DNA of 32,000 nt from Candidatus Hermodarchaeota archaeon (GCA_048886185.1 JBHLKY010000020.1:49550-81549), one strand, 5' to 3'. Shown: positions 1,844 through 32,000, counted from the first letter of the stretch. Numbers and translations are program-made. Notes: generated from the sequence alone by a model not told the origin.

Positions 1844-4300
1844 GTGAAGAATGAGCTAATATTAGATAATTGGTTTTATAAAATATTTAAAATAAATGAA
1901 AAAGAGATTTTTATTAACAAAGTCAAAAATAATCTATCAATAAGCTCATTAAGGGAAGAATTAAAACCTTTTAGAAATCCTGGTTCACTGCAATCAAATT
2001 TTGTTGAAACAAAGAAATTTAATCCTTATTTTGAAGATAATATAAAAAAAATCACCCATTTAGAAAAATTTTGCTTGTTGTTGATAACTGATTTTTCTCT
2101 AAAAGATCCTAATGATGATTATTTCCTTTGGTTTAGTTATATTGATACAATGGGACAGATCTTTTTGAATGGAGTTGAGATTAAAAATACTGTTAGTGCA
2201 TTTACTCATTATAGGATTCATTTACCAAACGACCTTCTTAAACCGATTAATACTCTTGTTATCATTATTTCTCCACCTATGAGTTTTGTAAACAAAGAGA
2301 TCGATATGGAAGGGGTAGAATACAAAGATCGAGTATATGTTCGACGTCCAGCATATAATTATGGATGGGATTTTGCTCCAAGATCATTGTTAGTGGGTAT
2401 TGGAGAAAGTAAAATCTTTAAGGAGGGAAATATCTCTTTTTCTGATCTATTTATATTGACAAAATCCATTTCAGGTGATTTAGCGAAACTATCGGTTTCA
2501 GTTACCTTAAATAGTGATATAGAGGGAAGAATTGAACTCGAATTGAAAATCATTGACTTATATAGCTATAAACCTGTATTTTCAGAGAATTTTTCACTAA
2601 TCCTTGATCTTGGGTTGAATGAATTGAATAAATCTATTGACCTGAAGAACTATCAGCTTTGGTGGCCGAATGGATTGGGTAATCAACAAATTTATCAGTT
2701 AATCATTTCTGAAAAAGTCACTAACTCCAGCATTGAAACAAGATTCGGAATCAGAACAGTTAAACTTATCTTAAAAGAGGAAGAAGAGAATAAATTCATT
2801 TTTGAGATTAATGGTAAAAGAATATTTGCTAAAGGTGCTAATTGGGTGCCTACTGACTCTTTGACAAATTATGGAACAGAGGAAAAATATAGAAAGCTTT
2901 TAACACTTGCTAAAGAAGCTAATTTCAATATGATTAGGATCTGGGGTGGAGGTGTCGTTGAAAATGATATTTTTTACGATATCTGTGATGAACTTGGTTT
3001 ATTGATATGGCATGATTTCCAATTTGCTTGTAGTATTTATCCTGAGCACAAACAATTTCTTTCTATTGTAGAAGTTGAAATTACTTCCATTGTTACGCGT
3101 TTAAGAAACCATCCTTCAATAATTCTTTGGTGTGGGAATAATGAAAACGAATGGATCGATTTTCAGCATTTTACAAGCAATTTTCGGGAAAATAACAGAA
3201 TTGGTGAAAAACTTCATCAAATAAAGGAGCGAGTATGTTCACAGTTAGATCATTCTAGGCCTTATTGGCGTACAAGTCCATGGAGTCCTTCAGCTGAGAT
3301 CTCTTATGATGTTGACCCTAATTCAATGGATGAGGGGAATTATCATGATTGGTGTGTCTGGCATGGTGTTGGACAGCCGAATTTTGAACCACCAGAATAT
3401 GAAGAGTATAGAAATAACAAAGCGAAATTCATCACAGAATTTGGAATACAGAGTTTTCCATCTAAACATACCATAAACAGAATTTTCAGCAAAAAAACTC
3501 AATCTAAGCCAAATGAGATCTGGAACTTCCATAACTGTGATGTACACAAAATAAAGGTCAATATGAAGAAAATGGGAAATCCAAAAAACATTGATGAATG
3601 GATTCTTTTCACACAAGCAGCCCAAGCATTTGGCATGAAATATGCAATAGAAACGTGGAGAGCTAGGAAATTTGATACTGGGGGAGTATTGGTATGGCAG
3701 TTTAATGAACCATGGCCAACGATCTGTTGGTCATTAATAGATTATTATTTTATCCCTAAAATAGCGTATTGGACATTAAAAAGATCTTTTAAGTTAGTTC
3801 TTATAGTAAAAGTCCCAGATGAGAATAATCTTATCATAATTAATGATTTATTTAAAACTATAAAAGGAACTCTAAGAATTAGAAAATTTAAGTTTAATAG
3901 CGAAATAATACATGAGGAAGATTACAAATTATCGGTTAAATCTAATTCCAAGAAAGAAATTTCCTTAGGATCATTGAACATAAATTTTGATGAGTTTTTA
4001 TGGGCAGAATTTAGAAATAATGACATCATCACAGAGAATATTGTATTACCATGTGATCCAGTAGATATTGACTTTCCTGATCCAACTATCCAGATGAAGT
4101 TAGATAATCAGAGCTTAACTCTCATATCAAAAGAATTTGCATTTTTAGTACATCTTCCTGATGAACTTGAGCCAACTGACAATTATTTTCATCTGATTCC
4201 CAATATTCCAAGAGAAATAAAGCTTAAACACCCTTTAGACAATCAAAAATTAAGAGTTTCAATATGGAATAAACCTCTCAAAGAGATTCGATTAATTTAA
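1844..4300 (+). CDS. glycoside hydrolase family 2, beta-mannosidase
   Basis: GANWVP, RIWGGG, WHDFQFAC, RLRNHPSIILWCGNNE (acid/base Glu), TEFG (nucleophile Glu) and WQFNEPWP motifs. GTG start with GAGGAG SD. Confidence 0.92.
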   Translation: MKNELILDNWFYKIFKINEKEIFINKVKNNLSISSLREELKPFRNPGSLQSNFVETKKFNPYFEDNIKKITHLEKFCLLLITDFSLKDPNDDYFLWFSYIDTMGQIFLNGVEIKNTVSAFTHYRIHLPNDLLKPINTLVIIISPPMSFVNKEIDMEGVEYKDRVYVRRPAYNYGWDFAPRSLLVGIGESKIFKEGNISFSDLFILTKSISGDLAKLSVSVTLNSDIEGRIELELKIIDLYSYKPVFSENFSLILDLGLNELNKSIDLKNYQLWWPNGLGNQQIYQLIISEKVTNSSIETRFGIRTVKLILKEEEENKFIFEINGKRIFAKGANWVPTDSLTNYGTEEKYRKLLTLAKEANFNMIRIWGGGVVENDIFYDICDELGLLIWHDFQFACSIYPEHKQFLSIVEVEITSIVTRLRNHPSIILWCGNNENEWIDFQHFTSNFRENNRIGEKLHQIKERVCSQLDHSRPYWRTSPWSPSAEISYDVDPNSMDEGNYHDWCVWHGVGQPNFEPPEYEEYRNNKAKFITEFGIQSFPSKHTINRIFSKKTQSKPNEIWNFHNCDVHKIKVNMKKMGNPKNIDEWILFTQAAQAFGMKYAIETWRARKFDTGGVLVWQFNEPWPTICWSLIDYYFIPKIAYWTLKRSFKLVLIVKVPDENNLIIINDLFKTIKGTLRIRKFKFNSEIIHEEDYKLSVKSNSKKEISLGSLNINFDEFLWAEFRNNDIITENIVLPCDPVDIDFPDPTIQMKLDNQSLTLISKEFAFLVHLPDELEPTDNYFHLIPNIPREIKLKHPLDNQKLRVSIWNKPLKEIRLI

Positions 4301-15782: not shown

Positions 15783-16814
15783 TTATTCATAGGTGGTTGG
15801 TTTGGTTACTGATGTAATTTCTTGTTCTCCAAGGCCTTTGAAATAAAACTCTTTAGAAGTTTTACACGTTATTTTCAGGAAGTTTTCGCCATCTCGAACC
15901 CCATTTAAATTTTCTTCTACTTGTCCAGTTTCCGATCCTTTCGTTATTCCCTCCTCATATCTAGATTGATGATAAAGTATCTGTAACAACCATCTAGTTC
16001 TGAGTATGAGGTGTAACCATTTTAATTCCGCTTTTGTTACAGGCGCTTCTTCTAGATAAGCAGTAATAAAATCATAGTATTGTCTTTTTCGTTCAGGTTG
16101 GTATAAATCACAATACATCATCATAGGAGCAATATCAAACAAAAGGAAATCGAAGTGAGCAGCGTTAAAGTCAATAATTCCCATATAATTCCCATCCTTA
16201 AAGAGGAAATCTTTTGGCCCTACATCACCATGTATGACAGCCATAGTTAGCTGATTTTTAGGTAAAGAATTTATTTCGTGTTCCCATTTTTCATATTGTT
16301 GTCTTATATACTCATTTTCAGGCATGTACTCTTCACTAGCTTCTATTACGTATGAAATCGTGTCCCATGGTTTAGCTGAAAGCCTCTTTTCACCTTTTTC
16401 TTTAACCATTTGAATGGATACTTGATGAATCCTACCCAATTCTCTTCCATAGAATGAAAGTACTGAATCTATTTTGTCTAATGTTTCATAATAAGTACCA
16501 GGTATAAATGATTGCACAACTATGACATTATCTTCGTATAAAAGACTGAATGTACCTTCTTTAGTCGTTACTGGCTTTGATGTTTTGATCCCATGATCTG
16601 CAAAATAATCATAAACTTCCATAATATATTCTACATTTCTTACTGAATCATAGATAAACCGAAGCACATATTCCCCTTTGTTTGTGCGAATATGATAATT
16701 GTCACTTTGAAATCCACTATTGAGCGCTTTTACTACTTTACTAAGTTCTCCAACATCGAAGTGTTCCACAATATTCCTGATTTTTCTATCATCAAGGATC
16801 ATTATAAGCCACAC
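15783..16814 (-). CDS. phosphotransferase, APH / homoserine-kinase-type-II family
   Basis: SDNYHI...YVLR, IHGDVGPKDFLF (Brenner-type motif with Asn to Asp) and GIIDF. The start may be a downstream ATG (MILDDRK). Confidence 0.85.
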   Translation of the reverse strand: MWLIMILDDRKIRNIVEHFDVGELSKVVKALNSGFQSDNYHIRTNKGEYVLRFIYDSVRNVEYIMEVYDYFADHGIKTSKPVTTKEGTFSLLYEDNVIVVQSFIPGTYYETLDKIDSVLSFYGRELGRIHQVSIQMVKEKGEKRLSAKPWDTISYVIEASEEYMPENEYIRQQYEKWEHEINSLPKNQLTMAVIHGDVGPKDFLFKDGNYMGIIDFNAAHFDFLLFDIAPMMMYCDLYQPERKRQYYDFITAYLEEAPVTKAELKWLHLILRTRWLLQILYHQSRYEEGITKGSETGQVEENLNGVRDGENFLKITCKTSKEFYFKGLGEQEITSVTKPTTYE

Positions 16815-21584: not shown

Positions 21585-22541
21585 CTAAGAATACGTAGAA
21601 TTCTGATAAACACGTATATAGTCAACAATCATTGTTTGAGGGAAAACAGAGTCGTCGATACCATAAAGACCACCCCAAGTACCACCAACAGCAATATTTA
21701 AAATCCAGTAAAAATTTTGGTCGAATGGCCAGGTGTAAGCGGATGCATTCACCTCTTTTTGAAATGTAAAATACTTTATATCATCCACAAAAAAATCAAT
21801 ACGATTGGGAAACCATTCAATGGCATAGATGTGGAATTGTTCCTCACATGTAGCCATAAAAACAGACCCCCCTTGTTGAGTACCCTTCAGATGATTATAA
21901 GCATCACAATGAATCGTTCCATGAATAAGCCCAGGTTGATATCCCACATATTCCATTATATCTATCTCCCCACTTTCGGGCCAGCCACCATAAACACTAC
22001 TTTGGGGCATCATCCAGATAGCAGGCCAGAGTCCTCGGCCATGTGGCAATATTGCACGAGCCTCAAATCTACCATATGTCCAATAAGCCTTTGATTGGGT
22101 ATTTATCCGTGCGGAAGTATATTTAATACCTATTTTATCACTCAATACCGCTTTTATTATCAAGGTTCCATCTTCTACATAGGAATTATTTAGATCCTTT
22201 ACATACTCCTGTTCTTCTTCATTTACCCATCCAGGTCCACGCCATTCAAAATTCCATTTGGATTCATTGGGAAAACCAGAATAATTAAACTCATCAGACC
22301 AATTTAACTGCTCCCAAAGATAAGAAGAATATTGCACCTCAAGGAAAGATGGTTCAGGTTCCTCATCGATTGGGTTGGGTTCCTCAGTTTCTTCAGGTTC
22401 CTCATTCGTTTGTTCATTTGTTGTATTGTTAGAATCAGGGGTTATAGATGGAGTATTTAGGTTAAAAAGAGCTAGAAATGTGACTCCAATTAATAAAAGA
22501 GACATTGAACCTCCAATCATTAATATTCTGCGATAAGACAT
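21585..22541 (-). CDS. glycoside hydrolase family 16 (laminarinase-type beta-1,3-glucanase), N-terminally membrane anchored
   Basis: N-terminal TM helix, E/P/N-rich linker, WSDEF, YTSARI, GLWPAIWM and the catalytic WPESGEIDIME motif. Confidence 0.92.
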   Translation of the reverse strand: MSYRRILMIGGSMSLLLIGVTFLALFNLNTPSITPDSNNTTNEQTNEEPEETEEPNPIDEEPEPSFLEVQYSSYLWEQLNWSDEFNYSGFPNESKWNFEWRGPGWVNEEEQEYVKDLNNSYVEDGTLIIKAVLSDKIGIKYTSARINTQSKAYWTYGRFEARAILPHGRGLWPAIWMMPQSSVYGGWPESGEIDIMEYVGYQPGLIHGTIHCDAYNHLKGTQQGGSVFMATCEEQFHIYAIEWFPNRIDFFVDDIKYFTFQKEVNASAYTWPFDQNFYWILNIAVGGTWGGLYGIDDSVFPQTMIVDYIRVYQNSTYS

Positions 22542-22610
22542 AATTTCACTGTATCTTGAGGATATTATTAAATTTTTCTGTTAGATCACAAAGGAGGAAG
22601 TTGTAAGCCA

Positions 22611-23609
22611 TTATAGTATCGAATTGGTGCGAATAAATTCAATAAGATCATCTACCTGAGTATATGCTATACAGGTCACTGTATCTGCCGCCCCATAATA
22701 GATAGCTATACGTCCTGTTGTTGCATCCGCTAATGCAGCGCATGGAAAAACAACATTAGGTACATCACCAACACATTCATACAATCTTTGAGGGGAAAGA
22801 ATATAAGGCCCCGTTCGATATTTTACATTCCAAGGTTGAGTAATATCAAGTATAGCAGCTCCCATGCTGTAAACAAAGCCATTACATGATGTTATTACAC
22901 CATGATATATCATAAGCCAGCCCTCAGTTGTTTCAATTGGAGTAGGACCAGCTCCAATCTTTGTTGATTGCCAACCAAAATTAGTGGCCATAACCTGACG
23001 ATGATGACCCCAATGAATCATATCAGGGCTTTCACTGTAGAAAATGTCTCCCCACGGTGTGTGTCCTCTATCACTTGGACGACTCAACATTGCATATTTT
23101 CCATTGATTTTTCGCGGAAAAAGAACACCATTCCGATTATATGGTAAAAAAGCATTTTCTAGTTGGTGAAATTCCTCAAAATTATGAGTATATGCCATAC
23201 CAATAGTTGGCCCATAATACCAATTACACCAAGTCACATAGAAGCGATCTTCTAACCAACATACCCTAGGATCATATCCATAAACAAATGTAGCGATATC
23301 AGGATTTTCACATTTAAAAGAAATTGGATCATAATCGATATCCCAATTTATGCCATCCACACTTCTTCCTTGATGGAGTCGCATATTTCTATATTTATCG
23401 TCACACCTAAAAATCCCAGCAAAGTTGCCATTAAACGAAACAACAGCACTATTAAATATACTGTTAGATGAAGGTATTAAATCTCTCGGAATAATAGGAT
23501 TTCGTTCTGATCGCCAAACCACATCTTTGTAATCTCTTGGTTTTTCTTCCCAAGGTATATTTGGTAAATCTTCACCAAGGATCGTTTTTCCAGATACCTC
23601 TTTTCCCAT
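22611..23609 (-). CDS. glycoside hydrolase family 130 beta-mannoside phosphorylase (GH130_2-like)
   Basis: [51 protein letters not shown] and GDVPNVVFP motifs. Confidence 0.93.
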
Positions 23610-26147: not shown

Positions 26148-26891
26148 TCAAAGATATTTTTGAAGCCAATTGATGCTTTCTTCAATAAATTCCTCTAATT
26201 GATCATTATTGAACATATGGTCGGCATTTTCAACCAAGAGGAGCTTATGGTCAATGTTCGAAGGAAAATGACCTTCAGCCTTTTTGGATAATTCTGGTTT
26301 AACAGTTTTATCTAACTTTCCATGAATAATTAATGATGGATATTTAAATTTTCGAAGATATTTCTCAGTATCGATTTCTTTTAATTCATGAACGAAATCT
26401 TCCTCAATGTATATTTCTGGGGGAGAAGCAGAGAGTAATTTAAATGGAAAGTGATTATAAAGTGAATTATTAGTAATATTTTCCAAATAAAATGCAGGGG
26501 CCCAAAAGATAGCTGTTCGTACTGGAAGATTTGCAATGAGAGCGGTTAAGCCCCCAAAACTCAATCCAATTATGCCAAAATCAACATAATCTAATTTTTT
26601 AAGCCAATCATAAACATCTACTAAATCCTGAACCTGCTGGGATAATAATACAGGTTCTCTTTTATTTTCTCCAGAACCAGAAAAGTCAAAGATTATGGCA
26701 TCAAATCCCTTTTCATTTAGCCTTTTTGCAGTTTTAGGAAATCGTCCCCATTCATATTTGTCACCTGTAAAGCCATGACATAAAATTACTAATGGGGATT
26801 TTTTCTTGGTATTTGTTGATGTCTCAAATAATATCGAAATTAACTCTCCCCCATTTCTTTTCGGAACTTTTATTTTTCTTTGTAGTATTAT
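26148..26891 (-). CDS. alpha/beta hydrolase (about 247 aa), non-canonical ATA start
   Basis: The frame is open from TAG 26909-26907 to the stop ending at 26148. It encodes LVILCHGFTG, FDFSGSGE, GLSFG (Ser), HGKLD (Asp) and ADH (His). No ATG/GTG/TTG lies before the nucleophile elbow, so the ORF-track call at 26564 is truncated. Confidence 0.82.
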   Translation of the reverse strand: MILQRKIKVPKRNGGELISILFETSTNTKKKSPLVILCHGFTGDKYEWGRFPKTAKRLNEKGFDAIIFDFSGSGENKREPVLLSQQVQDLVDVYDWLKKLDYVDFGIIGLSFGGLTALIANLPVRTAIFWAPAFYLENITNNSLYNHFPFKLLSASPPEIYIEEDFVHELKEIDTEKYLRKFKYPSLIIHGKLDKTVKPELSKKAEGHFPSNIDHKLLLVENADHMFNNDQLEEFIEESINWLQKYL

Positions 26892-27078
26892 ATTCTCACC
26901 AATTTGCTAAATTTTGCTATTATCGAAAGATAAAGGTAAAAAGGATTTAATCTTTTTACACAGGTGTGATAGGACTCTAATTATAGATAGATTTTTATAT
27001 TTCATTCATAGACTATTTAATTTCTTGCTATTAGTATAAGTTATAAAATTTGAAAAATGAACATTTTGTGGGTCTAAA

Positions 27079-30000
27079 ATGGATGTCACGATAAGGTTGA
27101 TGAATAATCAAACCTTTATAATTTCAAAATATGTTTTTCCCGAATTTAATGAAGAAGTTAAAAAAGAAATAAACATAAGACAACTTGCAATAAAAATCTT
27201 CAATATAGTTAACATTTTTGGTCCTAAAGCCCTCGTTCTTGAATGTGAGGATAAAACTCTTCAATCATATCTCATAAATTCTTTGAGTTTATATCTTCAG
27301 GATAATTTCACATTTGAAAAATTAGGTGGGGGGATTCAGATTTTGACTTCTCTTCCTTTTCATAGTGAAGAACCAATTTCTTTAACTTCCAAGATAAAAA
27401 AGTTAGGTCAGTTTGAAAATCAAATAGGGCTGGGTATTGAAATTCAGGGAAAAACGATTAACGGAGTATGCATTGATGGCAATGGAAACATCATTAAACG
27501 ATCAAAAAGAAGTATAAAAAAAGAAGAAGGCTATAGATCAGTCATTAATAGTATTATCGACTTAATCAAAGAACTATTGGAATCTTTGAATCCAGAGAAA
27601 ATTAAAAGCGTGGGGATTGGCATTCCTGGTGGAATCAGCCCTATAGTTGTCAGAAGAATGATAGCTATGGGAGATTTTCATGATATTAATCTCAAAGGTG
27701 AAATAGAAGCAGCTATTGGCCACCCTACATTTATTGAAAATGATGCCAACGTCATTGCTTTAGGAGAAAAAGAAATTTCAAGAATTGAAGGAGATTTTTT
27801 CACTCTCACTCTCGGAGAGAGTGTTGGTGGAGGTATCATAATTAATGATCGAGTAATTCATGGAGAAAACTATTTTGCAGGAGAATTGGGACATATAATA
27901 GTCGATGACGCTATTGATGCACCTGTTTGTGGTTGTGGGAATACTGGCTGCCTTGAAGCTAGAATGTCAACCATTTCTGATCTTAATGAGGAGAATTTGG
28001 ATGAGATTGCTAAAGATGTTGCCAAAGCGATTAGAATCATCGTTGATCTAACAAATATTAACCAAGTGCTTATTGGGAGTAGCGTCACAAAATTTGGGTA
28101 TAATTTTTATGAAGCCGTACGTCATAATTTAGAAACCCAGTTTATCCCAAAAACAACCCCTGTTCAAGTCTATGAATCATCATTAGAGAGATTTCCTGAA
28201 ACTGAACGCAAATTCATTGGAGCGATTGGTGCTGCTATTATGGGGATGCAAAAAGTAGGAGAAATATCTGAAAAAGTTGTAGTAGTTATCAAAAAAGACG
28301 ATCAAGAAATGGGAAAAGCAGCTGCAAGAATAATTTCTGAACAGATCAGGAGAAAACCAAATACAGTGTTGGGATTAGCAACTGGGAGTACTCCTATCAG
28401 TATGTATAAAGAATTAGTTCGAATGCACAATGAAGAAAATCTAGACTTTTCAAAGGTTACAACTTTCAATCTTGATGAATATTATCCCATAGAAAGAGTA
28501 AACAATCAAAGTTATTACAGCTTCATGCATTATTGGCTGTTCGACCAAATCAATATCAATCTAGAAAATGTTCATATCCCCGATGGAGAATGGTCAGAGA
28601 AAGATCTAGAATCTAACTGTGAGCAGTTTGAACAGCTAATCAAGAAAGCAGGAGGAATTGATATTCAGATCTTAGGGATTGGTGAGAGTTTTTTCACAGA
28701 GAAGAGAGAAATTCATGGAGGGCATATTGGATTTAACGAATCTGGCTCTGATTTCTCCTCTCGGACTAGGAAGGTGATTTTAGCAGAAAAAACTCGTGTA
28801 GATAATTCACGATTTTTTCAAAGTATTGAGGAAGTTCCCCGATATGCAATTACTATAGGAATAGGTACAATTTTAGATGCAAAAAGAATAATACTGCTAG
28901 CTTCTGGAGAGCATAAAGCCCTTATAATCAAGGAAGCTGTCGAAGGTAAAATTACTCCTTTTATACCCGCAACGGTATTACAAACTCATGCAAACACAAC
29001 CTTTCTAATAGAAGAGGGAGCAGCATCGAAATTAAGTCGAATGTCTTATCCATGGTTATTTTTCGATATGGATTGGATGAAAGAAACTGATAAAAAGAAA
29101 ACAGATGAAGTTAAAATTGATGAAGCGTTGATTTGGCTCTCATTGACCACAAAGAAACCATTGACCCAACTTGATTTACAAGATTTTCACAATAATTTCC
29201 TTTCAGATCTCCTGCAACTTTTTAACTACAATGTTCCTAGTTTGACTAGCAAGGTGATTGCAAGGATTAATAATAAGATACGTTTTAAAGAAAAACTACC
29301 AAGGCATAAAAAGATATTGGTCGTTTCTTGTCGCCCTGGTGATGATGGTGTTATTGCTGATACCGTTAGAGCTTTGGTTAGTAACGAAAACAAGTTAAAA
29401 ATAATAAATATGGTAAGTGGTAACATTAATGTGAAAAATTCTGATGTTATTGATTACTGTGAAGAGAATCTTTTCGAAGAATCAATTAAAGAAAGTGTTC
29501 TAAAAAATCGTATCGATGTATTCGAATTATTGAAGTTAAAAACTCTTGTTAGGAAATCTGAATCAATTGATATGCATAAATATCTAGGAATCTCTTCTGA
29601 AAATCAATTTTTCTTGAATTTACCTTTCTATGAAACAAGAACTATCGAAAAAATCATTGAAATCTCCGATATAGATATTATACCACTGGTTACAATTCTA
29701 GACCAAGAACAACCAGAGATTATTTTAATTCTTGGAGGAATCACTGATCCACATGGACTCAAAGCAAGAATAGTAGAAATCTTTGAATTAGCATTAAAAA
29801 GGTCTGGAATTCAAAAAACTGAACTCTGGTACTATAAGACAACTATGGAGGAATTCTCTGTTGCAAGAGGAGATATTATCGTTCCATTCACTGAAAAAGA
29901 CATGGATCTTAAAGTAATTGCCATTCAAAGATTAAAGAGTCAACAAGTTGTCGATTTTCTAGCAATTCCTGGATATGATCCACGACCGCTTTGGGAACGT

Positions 30001-30117
30001 ATTAAAGAACGAAATCGAGCTATTGGTTACATCCTTAAGACAACGGGTTTAGTTCCTGACGAATATAATTATGGATCAATTTACCAAGTTTCTCAGTACA
30101 TTAAAGACACGAGATAG
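27079..30117 (+). CDS. nagB: fusion protein: ROK domain + glucosamine-6-phosphate deaminase (NagB) + degenerate PIG-L/LmbE-like domain
   Basis: ROK (aa ~116-392): GIGIPG, ENDAN, GGGIIIN, GELGH, CGCGNTGCLE. NagB (aa ~400-653): LGLATGSTP, FNLDEY, GHIGFNE. PIG-L-like (aa ~744-1000): SGNI, LNLPFYET, DPHG. Confidence 0.88.
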   Translation: MDVTIRLMNNQTFIISKYVFPEFNEEVKKEINIRQLAIKIFNIVNIFGPKALVLECEDKTLQSYLINSLSLYLQDNFTFEKLGGGIQILTSLPFHSEEPISLTSKIKKLGQFENQIGLGIEIQGKTINGVCIDGNGNIIKRSKRSIKKEEGYRSVINSIIDLIKELLESLNPEKIKSVGIGIPGGISPIVVRRMIAMGDFHDINLKGEIEAAIGHPTFIENDANVIALGEKEISRIEGDFFTLTLGESVGGGIIINDRVIHGENYFAGELGHIIVDDAIDAPVCGCGNTGCLEARMSTISDLNEENLDEIAKDVAKAIRIIVDLTNINQVLIGSSVTKFGYNFYEAVRHNLETQFIPKTTPVQVYESSLERFPETERKFIGAIGAAIMGMQKVGEISEKVVVVIKKDDQEMGKAAARIISEQIRRKPNTVLGLATGSTPISMYKELVRMHNEENLDFSKVTTFNLDEYYPIERVNNQSYYSFMHYWLFDQININLENVHIPDGEWSEKDLESNCEQFEQLIKKAGGIDIQILGIGESFFTEKREIHGGHIGFNESGSDFSSRTRKVILAEKTRVDNSRFFQSIEEVPRYAITIGIGTILDAKRIILLASGEHKALIIKEAVEGKITPFIPATVLQTHANTTFLIEEGAASKLSRMSYPWLFFDMDWMKETDKKKTDEVKIDEALIWLSLTTKKPLTQLDLQDFHNNFLSDLLQLFNYNVPSLTSKVIARINNKIRFKEKLPRHKKILVVSCRPGDDGVIADTVRALVSNENKLKIINMVSGNINVKNSDVIDYCEENLFEESIKESVLKNRIDVFELLKLKTLVRKSESIDMHKYLGISSENQFFLNLPFYETRTIEKIIEISDIDIIPLVTILDQEQPEIILILGGITDPHGLKARIVEIFELALKRSGIQKTELWYYKTTMEEFSVARGDIIVPFTEKDMDLKVIAIQRLKSQQVVDFLAIPGYDPRPLWERIKERNRAIGYILKTTGLVPDEYNYGSIYQVSQYIKDTR

Positions 30118-30141: not shown

Positions 30142-32000
30142 ATGACAAGCAAAATTTCTTTGAATAAAGAATGGAAAATGCAATCTTCTGACAAGTTATC
30201 AAAGCATGGTGAAATAATTTCTACAACGGAATTCATCCCAGAAAATTGGTATACTGTCGATGTACCGACAACTGTGGTAAATGGTCTTGCCGTTAACGGT
30301 GAATTTGATTTTAAAAACCCTTATTATGGATTAAATCTAAAATCCATACCTGGTCTTAAAGGAGATATAAAAAGACAGAATTATGAGAGTCGATATAAAC
30401 CTGAAGATAGCCCATTCAGAAAACCATGGTGGTTCAGAAAGGAGTTTATAATAGATGAGGATCATCATAAGAAAGAAACTTGGATAGCTTTTGATGGTAT
30501 TAATTATTCTGCAAACATCTGGTTAAATGGTAGACGGATTGCCGGTTCTGACTATGTTATAGGAACGTATCGGCGATATGACTTTAATGTCACACATTTT
30601 GTGAATCCAGGCATAAATATTCTTGCATTAGAAGTGTTTTCTCCAAATCCTGACGATCTGGGGATTAGTTTTGTTGATTGGAACCCTATGCCTCCTGATG
30701 ATAACATGGGAATTTGGCAACCAGTGTACTTATATTCAACAGGTCCTGTGGCAATAAAATTTCCTTTTGTGAAAAGTAAATTAAACATTGAATCATTAGA
30801 AGAAGCTGAATTAATAATTACTGCAGAATTTCATAATACACAATCAGAATGTGTCAATGCTATTGTGGAAGGAAAAATAGAAAAGGTCAGTTTCCAAAAA
30901 GAAATTTTTCTTGACTCTAAAGAGAAGAAAAACGTTATCTTCTCATCTGAGGAGTTTCCACAACTGATGATAAAAAATCCACGAATATGGTGGCCCTATC
31001 AACTTGGATCTCCTGAATTATATAAACTGGATCTTAAAATTCGTGTTAATGACAAAATCTCTGATAGGCATGAAATTACTTTTGGGATAAGAGAAATTAG
31101 TTCTTATATAAATGAATATTCTTCAAGTAAACTCACTATAAAAAGTCGTATAATCTCAAAGTCAAACCAGAAGGTCGGATCCCGTGTTTTCACAATTAAT
31201 GGTCATGATATTCTACTCCGAGGCGCTGGTTGGACCTGTGATATGATGCTTGCTCAATCTAATGAACAAGATGAAATTGATGTTGCTTTTCTTAAGAATC
31301 TTAACATGAACGTGGTACGTTTTGAGGGGAAACTCGCAACTGACAATTTTTGGGATGTTTGTGATAGGGAAGGCATACTCATTCATGCTGGATGGGTTTG
31401 TTGTAGTCATTGGGAAAAATGGAACCAGTGGAAAACAGGTGATATCGAAGTTGCAGAAGCATCGTTACGCTCTCAAATTCTTCGTTTACGTAACCATCCA
31501 AGTTTTTTAGCTTGGTTTTATGGAAGTGATTTCCCCCCACCGGAGCATGTTGAGAAAGTATATCTCAATGTGTTAGAAAAAACTTATAATGAGCTTTCAA
31601 AGATTTCTAGTGCCACTGCTTATCCAACAAAGTTGACAGGGGAAACTGGTGTGAAAATGACTGGCCCATATACCTATGTTCCCCCTTCTTACTGGTATAC
31701 TGATGGAAGAGTAGGAGCTGCAGATAAATTTAATACTGAAACAGGACCAGATGTATGTATTCCTCCTTATGAAAGCTTAAGAATAATGCTTCCTGAATCC
31801 CAACTTAAAATTGGAAGTGAGGGGTGGAATTATCATACAGGACTAGGTGCTTTTGCTGACACAAAACTTATAGAAGAAGTTATTACAAAACGATATGGTA
31901 AACCTGTTTGTCTTGAGGATTTCTCAAAAACAGCACAAATTCTAGGTTATGAATGCTGGAGAGCAATGTATGAAGCGCATTTAAGAAATTACCCTAAATC
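30142..32000 (+). CDS. glycoside hydrolase family 2, exo-beta-D-glucosaminidase (CsxA-like), 3' partial
   Basis: Open frame of 619 codons from ATG 30142 (GGAG SD at 30128-30131) to the window end, absent from the ORF track. Motifs DWNPMPPDDNMGIW, RFEGK, GWVCCSHWE, RLRNHPS..WFYGSD (Asp463 acid), GPYTYVPPSYW and FNTETG (Glu533 nucleophile). Confidence 0.9.
   Translation, partial: MTSKISLNKEWKMQSSDKLSKHGEIISTTEFIPENWYTVDVPTTVVNGLAVNGEFDFKNPYYGLNLKSIPGLKGDIKRQNYESRYKPEDSPFRKPWWFRKEFIIDEDHHKKETWIAFDGINYSANIWLNGRRIAGSDYVIGTYRRYDFNVTHFVNPGINILALEVFSPNPDDLGISFVDWNPMPPDDNMGIWQPVYLYSTGPVAIKFPFVKSKLNIESLEEAELIITAEFHNTQSECVNAIVEGKIEKVSFQKEIFLDSKEKKNVIFSSEEFPQLMIKNPRIWWPYQLGSPELYKLDLKIRVNDKISDRHEITFGIREISSYINEYSSSKLTIKSRIISKSNQKVGSRVFTINGHDILLRGAGWTCDMMLAQSNEQDEIDVAFLKNLNMNVVRFEGKLATDNFWDVCDREGILIHAGWVCCSHWEKWNQWKTGDIEVAEASLRSQILRLRNHPSFLAWFYGSDFPPPEHVEKVYLNVLEKTYNELSKISSATAYPTKLTGETGVKMTGPYTYVPPSYWYTDGRVGAADKFNTETGPDVCIPPYESLRIMLPESQLKIGSEGWNYHTGLGAFADTKLIEEVITKRYGKPVCLEDFSKTAQILGYECWRAMYEAHLRNYPK

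Follow-up and report, generated by a model that had tools for sequence, protein, structure and literature searches.

Fusions of a glucosamine-6-phosphate (GlcN-6-P) deaminase of the NagB type with a C-terminal PIG-L/LmbE-like module form a recognised family of two-domain proteins of ~ 600–680 amino acids (aa) (NF002557/PRK02122, "glucosamine-6-phosphate deaminase-like"), distributed in Bacteroidota, Gemmatimonadota, Longimicrobiales and some archaea. Our literature search found no characterised member of this two-domain family, and the expression of a representative from Flavobacterium failed (PMC7426924). Since this parent family seems uncharacterised even in bacteria, any biochemistry obtained on it would be new. 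ROK proteins, for their part, are sugar kinases (NagK, GlcK, NanK) or regulators (Mlc, NagC, repressors of Thermotogae) that have in common their fold, a zinc motif, the ExGH and NDxN motifs and a catalytic Asp. A precedent for the fusion of a ROK domain to an amino-sugar enzyme is provided by the animal UDP-N-acetylglucosamine 2-epimerase/N-acetylmannosamine kinase GNE, an enzyme in which the ROK domain works as a kinase and its DxGxT motif is canonical (PMC2742894). Here we present the analysis of a 32,000-nucleotide stretch of DNA (hereafter the window) from a Candidatus Hermodarchaeota archaeon (GCA_048886185.1, JBHLKY010000020.1:49550-81549), in which a single open reading frame (ORF; 27079..30117, + strand) encodes a 1012-aa protein (P0001) joining an N-terminal domain (NTD), a ROK module, a NagB module, a linker and a PIG-L-like module in this order. 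This protein is 37–47 % identical to members of the NF002557 family, to which it adds ~ 395 N-terminal residues (NTD and ROK), and it differs from GNE in both its fusion partner and its domain order.

With a confidence that we place a little above even, we propose that this protein is a GlcN-6-P deaminase placed between a pseudokinase that still binds sugar and a pseudo-deacetylase. In this Asgard-specific four-module protein, the sole canonical catalysis would be the conversion of GlcN-6-P into fructose-6-phosphate (fructose-6-P) and ammonium by the central NagB module, a step that would close a hexosamine-catabolic locus comprising a glycoside hydrolase (GH) fusion (GH2-GH94), a GlmM-like mutase and NagA downstream, and GH130, GH16 and an ATP-binding cassette (ABC) permease upstream. 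The family would have arisen once, through the addition of an orphan NTD and a ROK module to an archaeal two-domain NagB-PIG-L protein. Along the branch that leads to the window's genome, the PIG-L-like module would have lost two of its three metal ligands together with the general base, becoming a pseudo-deacetylase, and the ROK module would have lost the residues that hold ATP while keeping its zinc site, sugar ligands and catalytic Asp, and may thus bind an amino sugar without phosphorylating it. The ROK module could then act as a sensing/regulatory or assembly domain for a NagB enzyme of the monomeric, non-allosteric type, although any regulatory role is speculative.

The limits of the modules were defined by profile searches and by a full-length AlphaFold model (mean predicted local distance difference test score, pLDDT, of 86.6; predicted template-modelling score, pTM, of 0.76). 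The NTD (aa 1–115; 27079..27423, +) is a sequence orphan with a predicted alpha/beta fold, for which an ASKHA/ROK lobe is the nearest structure. It is followed by the ROK module (aa 116–395; 27424..28263, +), recognised by Pfam at aa 118–297 (E 4e-35; 122 bits for a cut-off of 22.9), and by the NagB module (aa 396–657; 28264..29049, +), where Glucosamine_iso (PF01182) matches aa 410–640 (E 6e-17; 62.6 bits for a cut-off of 27). A helical linker (aa 658–740; 29050..29298, +; helices predicted at aa 677–731), covered by NF002557 and common to the two-domain NagB-PIG-L family, then leads to the PIG-L/LmbE-like module (aa 741–1012; 29299..30114, +). The NCBIfam model NF002557 ("long" NagB-like) itself spans aa 395–991 (profile positions 24–638 of 653; 474.5 bits for a cut-off of 384), and the structural model places the limits of the three recognisable modules at aa 116–392, 400–653 and ~ 744–1001. 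A preliminary description, made from the sequence, had reported one 1012-aa ORF with ROK, NagB and PIG-L-like domains at about 27424–28254, 28276–29037 and 29308–30080; the ORF call, Pfam, NCBIfam and profile-profile comparisons bear this out, and these coordinates fall within a few residues of the model-derived limits. Its count of three modules is right as far as it goes but overlooked the conserved NTD. N-termini are conserved in 12 full-length homologues, indicating that the annotated start codon is the right one. When the full-length model was used in structure searches, the match lists were filled by NagB and ROK proteins.

The GlcN-6-P deaminase activity predicted for the central module is well supported by its profile, residues and modelled fold. 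The NagB equivalog TIGR00502 scores 275.6 bits for a cut-off of 236.9, and the monomeric NagB of Bacillus subtilis (PDB 2BKV/2BKX) is the closest enzyme in both sequence (43–45 % identity) and structure (2bkv, Z 37.6, root-mean-square deviation of 0.9 Å over 242/242 residues; Foldseek E 1e-25). All 13 full-length homologues share D466, H549, E554, R564 and K613, residues that can be matched with those of the Escherichia coli and B. subtilis enzymes and that correspond to E. coli D72, H143, E148, R172 and K208, which we take to be the catalytic and phosphate-binding residues. This module is moreover the only Glucosamine_iso match in the genome, which is 96 % complete. B. subtilis NagB stands alone, whereas the module described here is embedded between others and has a 10-residue insertion before G-H-I-G-F-N-E that is common to the archaeal relatives. 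The classical allosteric site for N-acetylglucosamine-6-phosphate in hexameric NagB uses a free N-terminus; as the N-terminus of this module is not free and its nearest relative is monomeric, this classical site is not expected here. Within the NagB module, several short alternative contigs from three sediment runs overlap at 28521–28591 and carry a C/T difference at 28551, which suggests strain-level variation.

The ROK module has an unambiguous fold, with a Z score of 29.9 against the glucokinase of Enterococcus faecalis (2qm1) and of 24–30 across ROK proteins, and its best sequence match in the PDB is the kinase domain of GNE (E 4e-21). All the kinase and regulator subfamily models of NCBIfam nevertheless remain far under their cut-offs (100 bits for the ROK glucokinase subfamily, against a cut-off of 260). 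We compared its motifs across 113 stand-alone ROK relatives and 13 fusion proteins. The phosphate-1 loop (G-I-E-I-Q-G-K-T, aa 119–126; 27433..27456, +) departs from the canonical D-x-G-G-T, with E121 in place of an Asp present in 113/113 stand-alone ROKs and K125 in place of a Thr present in 112/113. The phosphate-2 motif (L-G-E-S-V-G-G-G, aa 245–252; 27811..27834, +; canonical G-T-G-x-G-G-G) is similarly altered, E247 and S248 replacing a Thr and a Gly that are both found in all 113 relatives. The adenosine motif (I-G-S-S-V, aa 332–336; 28072..28086, +; canonical G-G-G) carries S334 and S335 where 111/113 stand-alone ROKs have Gly-Gly, and it lies after a shortened segment: only 40 aa separate it from the zinc motif, against a median of 81 and a minimum of 66 in the stand-alone proteins. 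None of the 113 relatives has so short a large lobe, the difference being ~ 40 residues. By contrast, the sugar-ligand Asn and the catalytic-base Asp are kept in N-D-A-N (aa 221–224; 27739..27750, +), invariant in 13/13 fusions and 113/113 ROKs, and so are the E-x-G-H and the zinc motif C-x-C-G-x-x-G-C-x-E (aa 269–293; 27883..27957, +). Residues E269, H272, C284, C286 and C291 are invariant, and E293 is shared by 11/13 fusion proteins, the remaining two having Q. The zinc motif defined for ROK proteins, G-H-x(9-11)-C-x-C-G-x-x-G-C-x-E (PMC2742894), is hence complete in this protein (H272, C284, C286, C291 and E293).

The structure of PsNagK allows these changes to be placed around the ligands. 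In this kinase, AMP-PNP is bound through four side chains (T10, D105, T132 and E196) and through the main chain at G9, T10 and G255, the latter contacting the phosphates, and D6 is an essential ligand of the catalytic metal (PMC10031466). The counterparts of T10, D105, T132, G9 and G255 in our protein are K125, D222, E247, G124 and S334/S335, and nothing can be aligned with E196, where the ~ 40-aa deletion starts. Consequently, the only nucleotide and metal contacts kept are the equivalents of D105 and G9, together with an acidic residue at the position of D6. The sugar and zinc side of the site is a different matter, N104, D105, E154, H157 and D187 of PsNagK corresponding to N221, D222, E269, H272 and E293. 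ROK regulators likewise have an altered DxGxT and a conserved zinc motif (PMC3553997). Unlike them, the fusion has no DNA-binding domain, its N-terminal extension being an orphan alpha/beta domain and not a winged helix. From this loss of the ATP site with retention of zinc and sugar residues, as in the ROK regulators, we infer that the ROK module binds an amino sugar but does not phosphorylate it. The resemblance of G-I-E-I-Q-G-K-T to a Walker A motif was considered and attributed to chance, close relatives replacing the Lys by R, H or N and the element lying within an ASKHA beta-hairpin.

The preliminary description had suggested that this single chain could phosphorylate glucosamine (GlcN) and deaminate GlcN-6-P. 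The deamination agrees with the residues, profile and fold of the NagB module, and the phosphorylation is made doubtful by the changed ATP motifs. The genomic context nonetheless argues for it and weighs against the pseudokinase that we propose. The next gene (30142..32000, +, cut by the window end and continuing at L032:92-4330, contig C20 of G000) encodes a GH2 part homologous to the exo-beta-D-glucosaminidase CsxA (2vzs; E 3e-103), a type of enzyme that releases GlcN, and this pairing is conserved in four lineages (G067, G074, G065 and G138). Phosphorolysis by the GH94 and GH130 enzymes would likewise release N-acetylglucosamine (GlcNAc). A hexosamine kinase is therefore called for, and the pathway logic of a kinase-deaminase is favoured by this neighbourhood; the 96 %-complete genome moreover holds no ROK match outside this ORF. 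Neither Glk nor an ADP-dependent kinase (ADP-GK) nor a NAGK-type kinase was found there, and four BcrAD_BadFG genes, candidates for eukaryote-type GlcNAc kinases, proved to be of the acyl-CoA dehydratase activase/benzoyl-CoA reductase types. On the side of the pseudokinase, other sugar-kinase families were detected elsewhere in the genome, namely two GalK-like GHMP and four PfkB proteins. On the side of an active kinase, the ROK module, which is as constrained as NagB, keeps the acidic E121 at the metal site and the base D222. A Glu in the phosphate-1 motif and G-S in the adenosine motif occur in active ASKHA sugar kinases, human NAGK among them, so that two of the changes in the ROK module need not be fatal. 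In the same vein, the account of PsNagK has D6 conserved "as an acidic residue" (PMC10031466), so a Glu may serve in its place.

A bifunctional hexosamine kinase/deaminase, in which the ROK module would phosphorylate GlcN or GlcNAc through a remodelled nucleotide site or with another donor and pass GlcN-6-P to NagB, is thus a serious possibility, although we hold it to be less than probable. The PIG-L-like module alone would be dead, which would be acceptable because the substrate is already deacetylated. The retention of the catalytic Asp, of all the sugar ligands, of the zinc site and of an acidic residue at the metal position, under strong selection, fits such an enzyme. It is opposed by the replacement of the phosphate-1 Thr, the phosphate-2 Thr and Gly and the adenosine Gly-Gly, (near-)invariant in the 113 relatives and in direct contact with ATP in PsNagK, and by the absence of ~ 40 large-lobe residues, among them the stretch around the ribose ligand E196. 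In sister lineages that share the GH2 partner, moreover, the metal position is occupied by F or S and the ATP motifs are missing. A naive annotation of the protein as a kinase-deaminase-deacetylase would misrepresent the amino-sugar metabolism of Asgard archaea.

At the other end of the protein, the match to Pfam PIG-L (PF02585) is below threshold (aa 753–885; E 0.019; 15.9 bits for a cut-off of 28.2), but a profile-profile alignment (hhalign) links the C-terminal module to the four stand-alone PIG-L proteins of the same genome with a probability of 98.6 % (E 7e-16). Together with relatives that carry PF02585, this makes the homology to PIG-L secure. A sequence search of aa 395–1012 against the PDB returned no solved relative beyond aa 660. 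The near-invariant motifs of the two-domain NF002557 family are replaced in the protein of the window and in its clade: S-P-H-P-D-D-D (108/108 two-domain relatives) has become S-C-R-P-G-D-D (29326-29346, +), D-P-H-G-T-H (nearly all relatives) has become D-P-H-G-L-K (29746-29763, +), and H-x-S-Q (H-(K/Q)-S-Q in nearly all relatives) has become R-L-K-S-Q (29929-29943, +). In the hhalign register, R752 occupies the position of the His ligand, G754 that of the general-base Asp and K895 that of the second His, D755 being the one Asp kept. These roles (the HPDD His and Asp and the PDH His as metal ligands, and the general-base Asp) are those that we assume from the MshB/LmbE enzymes. The HPDD-type His and Asp are retained in the four stand-alone PIG-L proteins of the genome, and S-P-H-P-D-D-D is also kept by the triple fusions of the Helarchaeota type. 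Deprived of its general base and of two out of three metal ligands, the module is not expected to be a canonical metal-dependent deacetylase, and it is probably a pseudo-deacetylase. In the window's lineage, two of the three recognisable modules hence show pseudoenzyme signatures, and both kinase and deacetylase activities appear, from these residue changes, to have been lost within the fusion.

Such an unusual architecture raises the question of a chimeric assembly or of a read-through of adjoining genes, and this artefact we consider to have a negligible probability. Nothing was found in its favour beyond the poor coverage of 27079–28040 by public (Logan) contigs in three of four runs, and these contigs show neither joints nor indels on the gene. 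The same uninterrupted ORF occurs in independent genomes and metagenomes, including G067, a one-contig genome of the same genus that has this locus with an unchanged gene order and a protein of 85 % identity. The alignment of full-length homologues, whose identities in Asgard genomes range from 54 to 85 %, shows conserved domain junctions, and for each module the ratio of non-synonymous to synonymous substitution rates (dN/dS) stays far under 1. A misassembly, which the preliminary description had named among the findings that would overturn it, is excluded by the full-length architecture in the independent assemblies G067, G074 and G127 and by the contigs without joints.

A search of 5.8 billion proteins retrieved ~ 16 clusters sharing the full-length architecture, all from metagenome-assembled genomes of Asgard archaea labelled Hodarchaeales/Hodarchaeota, Helarchaeota or Promethearchaeota, at identities of 82–83 %, ~ 60 % and 54–57 %. 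The archaeal host suspected at the outset is thereby placed among Asgard archaea with relatives of the Hodarchaeales type. Among 400 Asgard genomes, full-length or nearly full-length copies were limited to the window's genome, three genomes of the same genus (G067, G074 and G068, the latter with its copy spread over two contigs) and two others (G127 and G138, the copy of G138 being very divergent). G065 and G072, of the same genus, held only remnants, and G128 a two-domain form. The architecture is thus rare and not widespread among these genomes. The two-domain NagB-PIG-L fusions, already mentioned in the preliminary description, are for their part widespread in bacteria at ~ 600–680 aa and present in archaea too. 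That description knew of no characterised triple fusion, and we found no paper describing a ROK-NagB-PIG-L architecture, even though triple-fusion proteins have already been deposited under the name "glucosamine-6-phosphate deaminase". Its statement that ROK sugar kinases are normally separate proteins holds in general but leaves out the epimerase-fused ROK of GNE.

In a tree of the NagB and PIG-L part, the triple fusions form one clade (SH-aLRT 99) nested within the archaeal two-domain proteins of the NF002557 family. The Helarchaeota-type proteins branch first, followed by G138 on a long branch, and then by a fully supported clade that unites the group at ~ 60 % identity with the group of the window, the clade of the window being derived. 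This topology argues for a single fusion event, with catalytic motifs lost afterwards. The Helarchaeota-type ROK is near canonical (D-I-G-G-H-S, G-T-G and G-G-K) and lacks the deletion. In G138, the phosphate-1, phosphate-2 and adenosine motifs are unrecognisable (G-I-S-I-T-R-K-E, I-D-D-Y-V-G-G-G and I-T-T-Q-F), but NDxN, ExGH, the zinc motif and the GH2 neighbour are retained. In the broader derived clade, the residue at the metal-binding acidic position varies between E, D, F and S. These lineages compose a natural series, with a near-canonical ROK and PIG-L in the Helarchaeota type, a degenerate ROK beside mostly intact PIG-L motifs in G138, and both modules degenerate in the clade of the window, a series that could reveal how catalytic domains in fusions are converted to non-catalytic roles. 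Within the genus, dN/dS amounts to 0.08–0.19 for the NTD, 0.075–0.10 for ROK, 0.05–0.09 for NagB and 0.11–0.18 for PIG-L. All the modules are therefore under purifying selection, indicating that the altered ones are in use and are not decaying.

Purifying selection in spite of lost catalytic residues would also be expected if the flanking modules were purely structural, oligomerising or stabilising the deaminase or docking the GH2 enzyme with no ligand bound. ROK kinases do dimerise through their large lobe (PMC10031466), and in G065 a stand-alone C-terminal module persists beside GH2 without ROK or NagB. We nevertheless judge a purely structural role improbable: N221, D222, E269, H272 and the zinc Cys are strictly invariant across lineages in which the ATP motifs vary freely, which argues that sugar binding is kept and that the module is not a mere scaffold. 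The G065 copy is a 366-aa ORF (L037:9821-10921, −) made of the linker and the PIG-L-like module only, sister to the full-length P0010 in the tree. Immediately downstream of this copy is a GH2 gene with the exo-glucosaminidase Ig domain, apparently split into ORFs of 482 and 372 aa; on the other flank of the copy is an unrelated NAD(P)H-hydrate dehydratase.

Returning to the sugar-binding pseudokinase, its most novel form would make the ROK module a built-in amino-sugar sensor that brings a new allosteric control to a monomer-type NagB, the NTD being a remnant ASKHA lobe standing in for the partner subunit of the usual ROK dimer; an equally novel variant would be a remodelled site using a phosphoryl donor other than ATP. 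We put this forward tentatively, as a possible reading rather than a probable one. If the sensor version were true, a ROK domain would function as the regulatory module of an enzyme, being neither a kinase nor the effector domain of a repressor. As for the NTD, a profile of aa 1–116 searched against 1.84 billion cluster representatives found its own family only. Its model (pLDDT 81) forms a beta-beta-alpha-beta-alpha-beta unit, for which VIA-align against 48,000 PDB representatives gave the best scores with the large lobes of ROK proteins (7rhe residues 225–390, Z 6.8), ROK-family proteins filling 15 of the top 25 rows. A shape search of the ESM Atlas also pointed to ROK clusters (TM by query of 0.55–0.59). 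Foldseek against the PDB gave no match to the NTD model at E ≤ 0.001, and a language-model feature search peaked at 0.85 with unnamed bacterial clusters, below a meaningful level. With such middling fold scores, the assignment of the modelled NTD to an ASKHA-like relic lobe is tentative.

The locus of the fusion gene resembles a pathway that would convert chito-oligosaccharides or N-glycan cores to fructose-6-P, NagB performing the final reaction. The protein is also a marker of this compact locus for the use of hexosamines and N-glycan cores, in a group of archaea whose physiology has been deduced mostly from genomes. In the chitin pathway of Thermococcus, the PIG-L-type deacetylase Dac acts with an exo-beta-glucosaminidase, a GlcN kinase and a deaminase. 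The logic is alike, from glucosaminidase to GlcN phosphorylation and deamination with the involvement of a PIG-L-family protein, but the families of the glucosaminidase, kinase and deaminase differ, and in our archaeon the PIG-L metal site is gone and an ADP-dependent kinase was not found. Downstream of the fusion, the complete product of the neighbouring gene is a 1412-aa protein in which the CsxA-like GH2 part (aa 1–620) is followed by a GH94 part (aa 654–1412) resembling cellobiose/chitobiose phosphorylases. In G074, of the same genus, GH2 is a stand-alone ORF of 868 aa and the GH94 homologues (~ 33–35 % identity) lie elsewhere, so the GH2-GH94 fusion may be genome-specific or an assembly chimera. 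Next come a 714-aa GlmM-like mutase, NagA (334 bits, over its cut-off) and a SIS_2 protein. The mutase (L032:4493-6637, +, ~ 3 kb past the window end) is nearest to GlmM, with 138 bits for a cut-off of 448 and ~ 270 additional residues; this phosphohexomutase is a candidate GlcN-1-phosphate/GlcNAc-1-phosphate mutase for a phosphorolytic route. In the Helarchaeota-type locus of G127, a GalK-like GHMP kinase (L035:7531-8601, −) follows the triple fusion and replaces GH2.

The genes upstream of the fusion encode an alpha/beta hydrolase, ThuA, a glyoxalase-family protein, an ABC permease, GH130, GH16 and a helix-turn-helix protein. A GH2 beta-mannosidase-like gene, a GH130 phosphorylase gene and a GH16 gene occur within the same 32 kb at 1844–4300 (+) and 21585–23609 (−), a set consistent with the breakdown of Man-beta-1,4-GlcNAc (N-glycan core) or of beta-mannan/beta-glucan. 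An ORF of the APH family (15783-16814) was examined as a possible NahK-type N-acetylhexosamine kinase and set aside, its nearest solved structures being a homoserine kinase and an amicoumacin kinase. Finally, the alpha/beta-hydrolase frame upstream (26148-26906, −) spans 252 codons from stop to stop and has no ATG, GTG or TTG before an internal TTG at 26564; the 114 codons ahead of this TTG resemble real elements of the fold (H-G-F-T-G and G-L-S-F-G-G).

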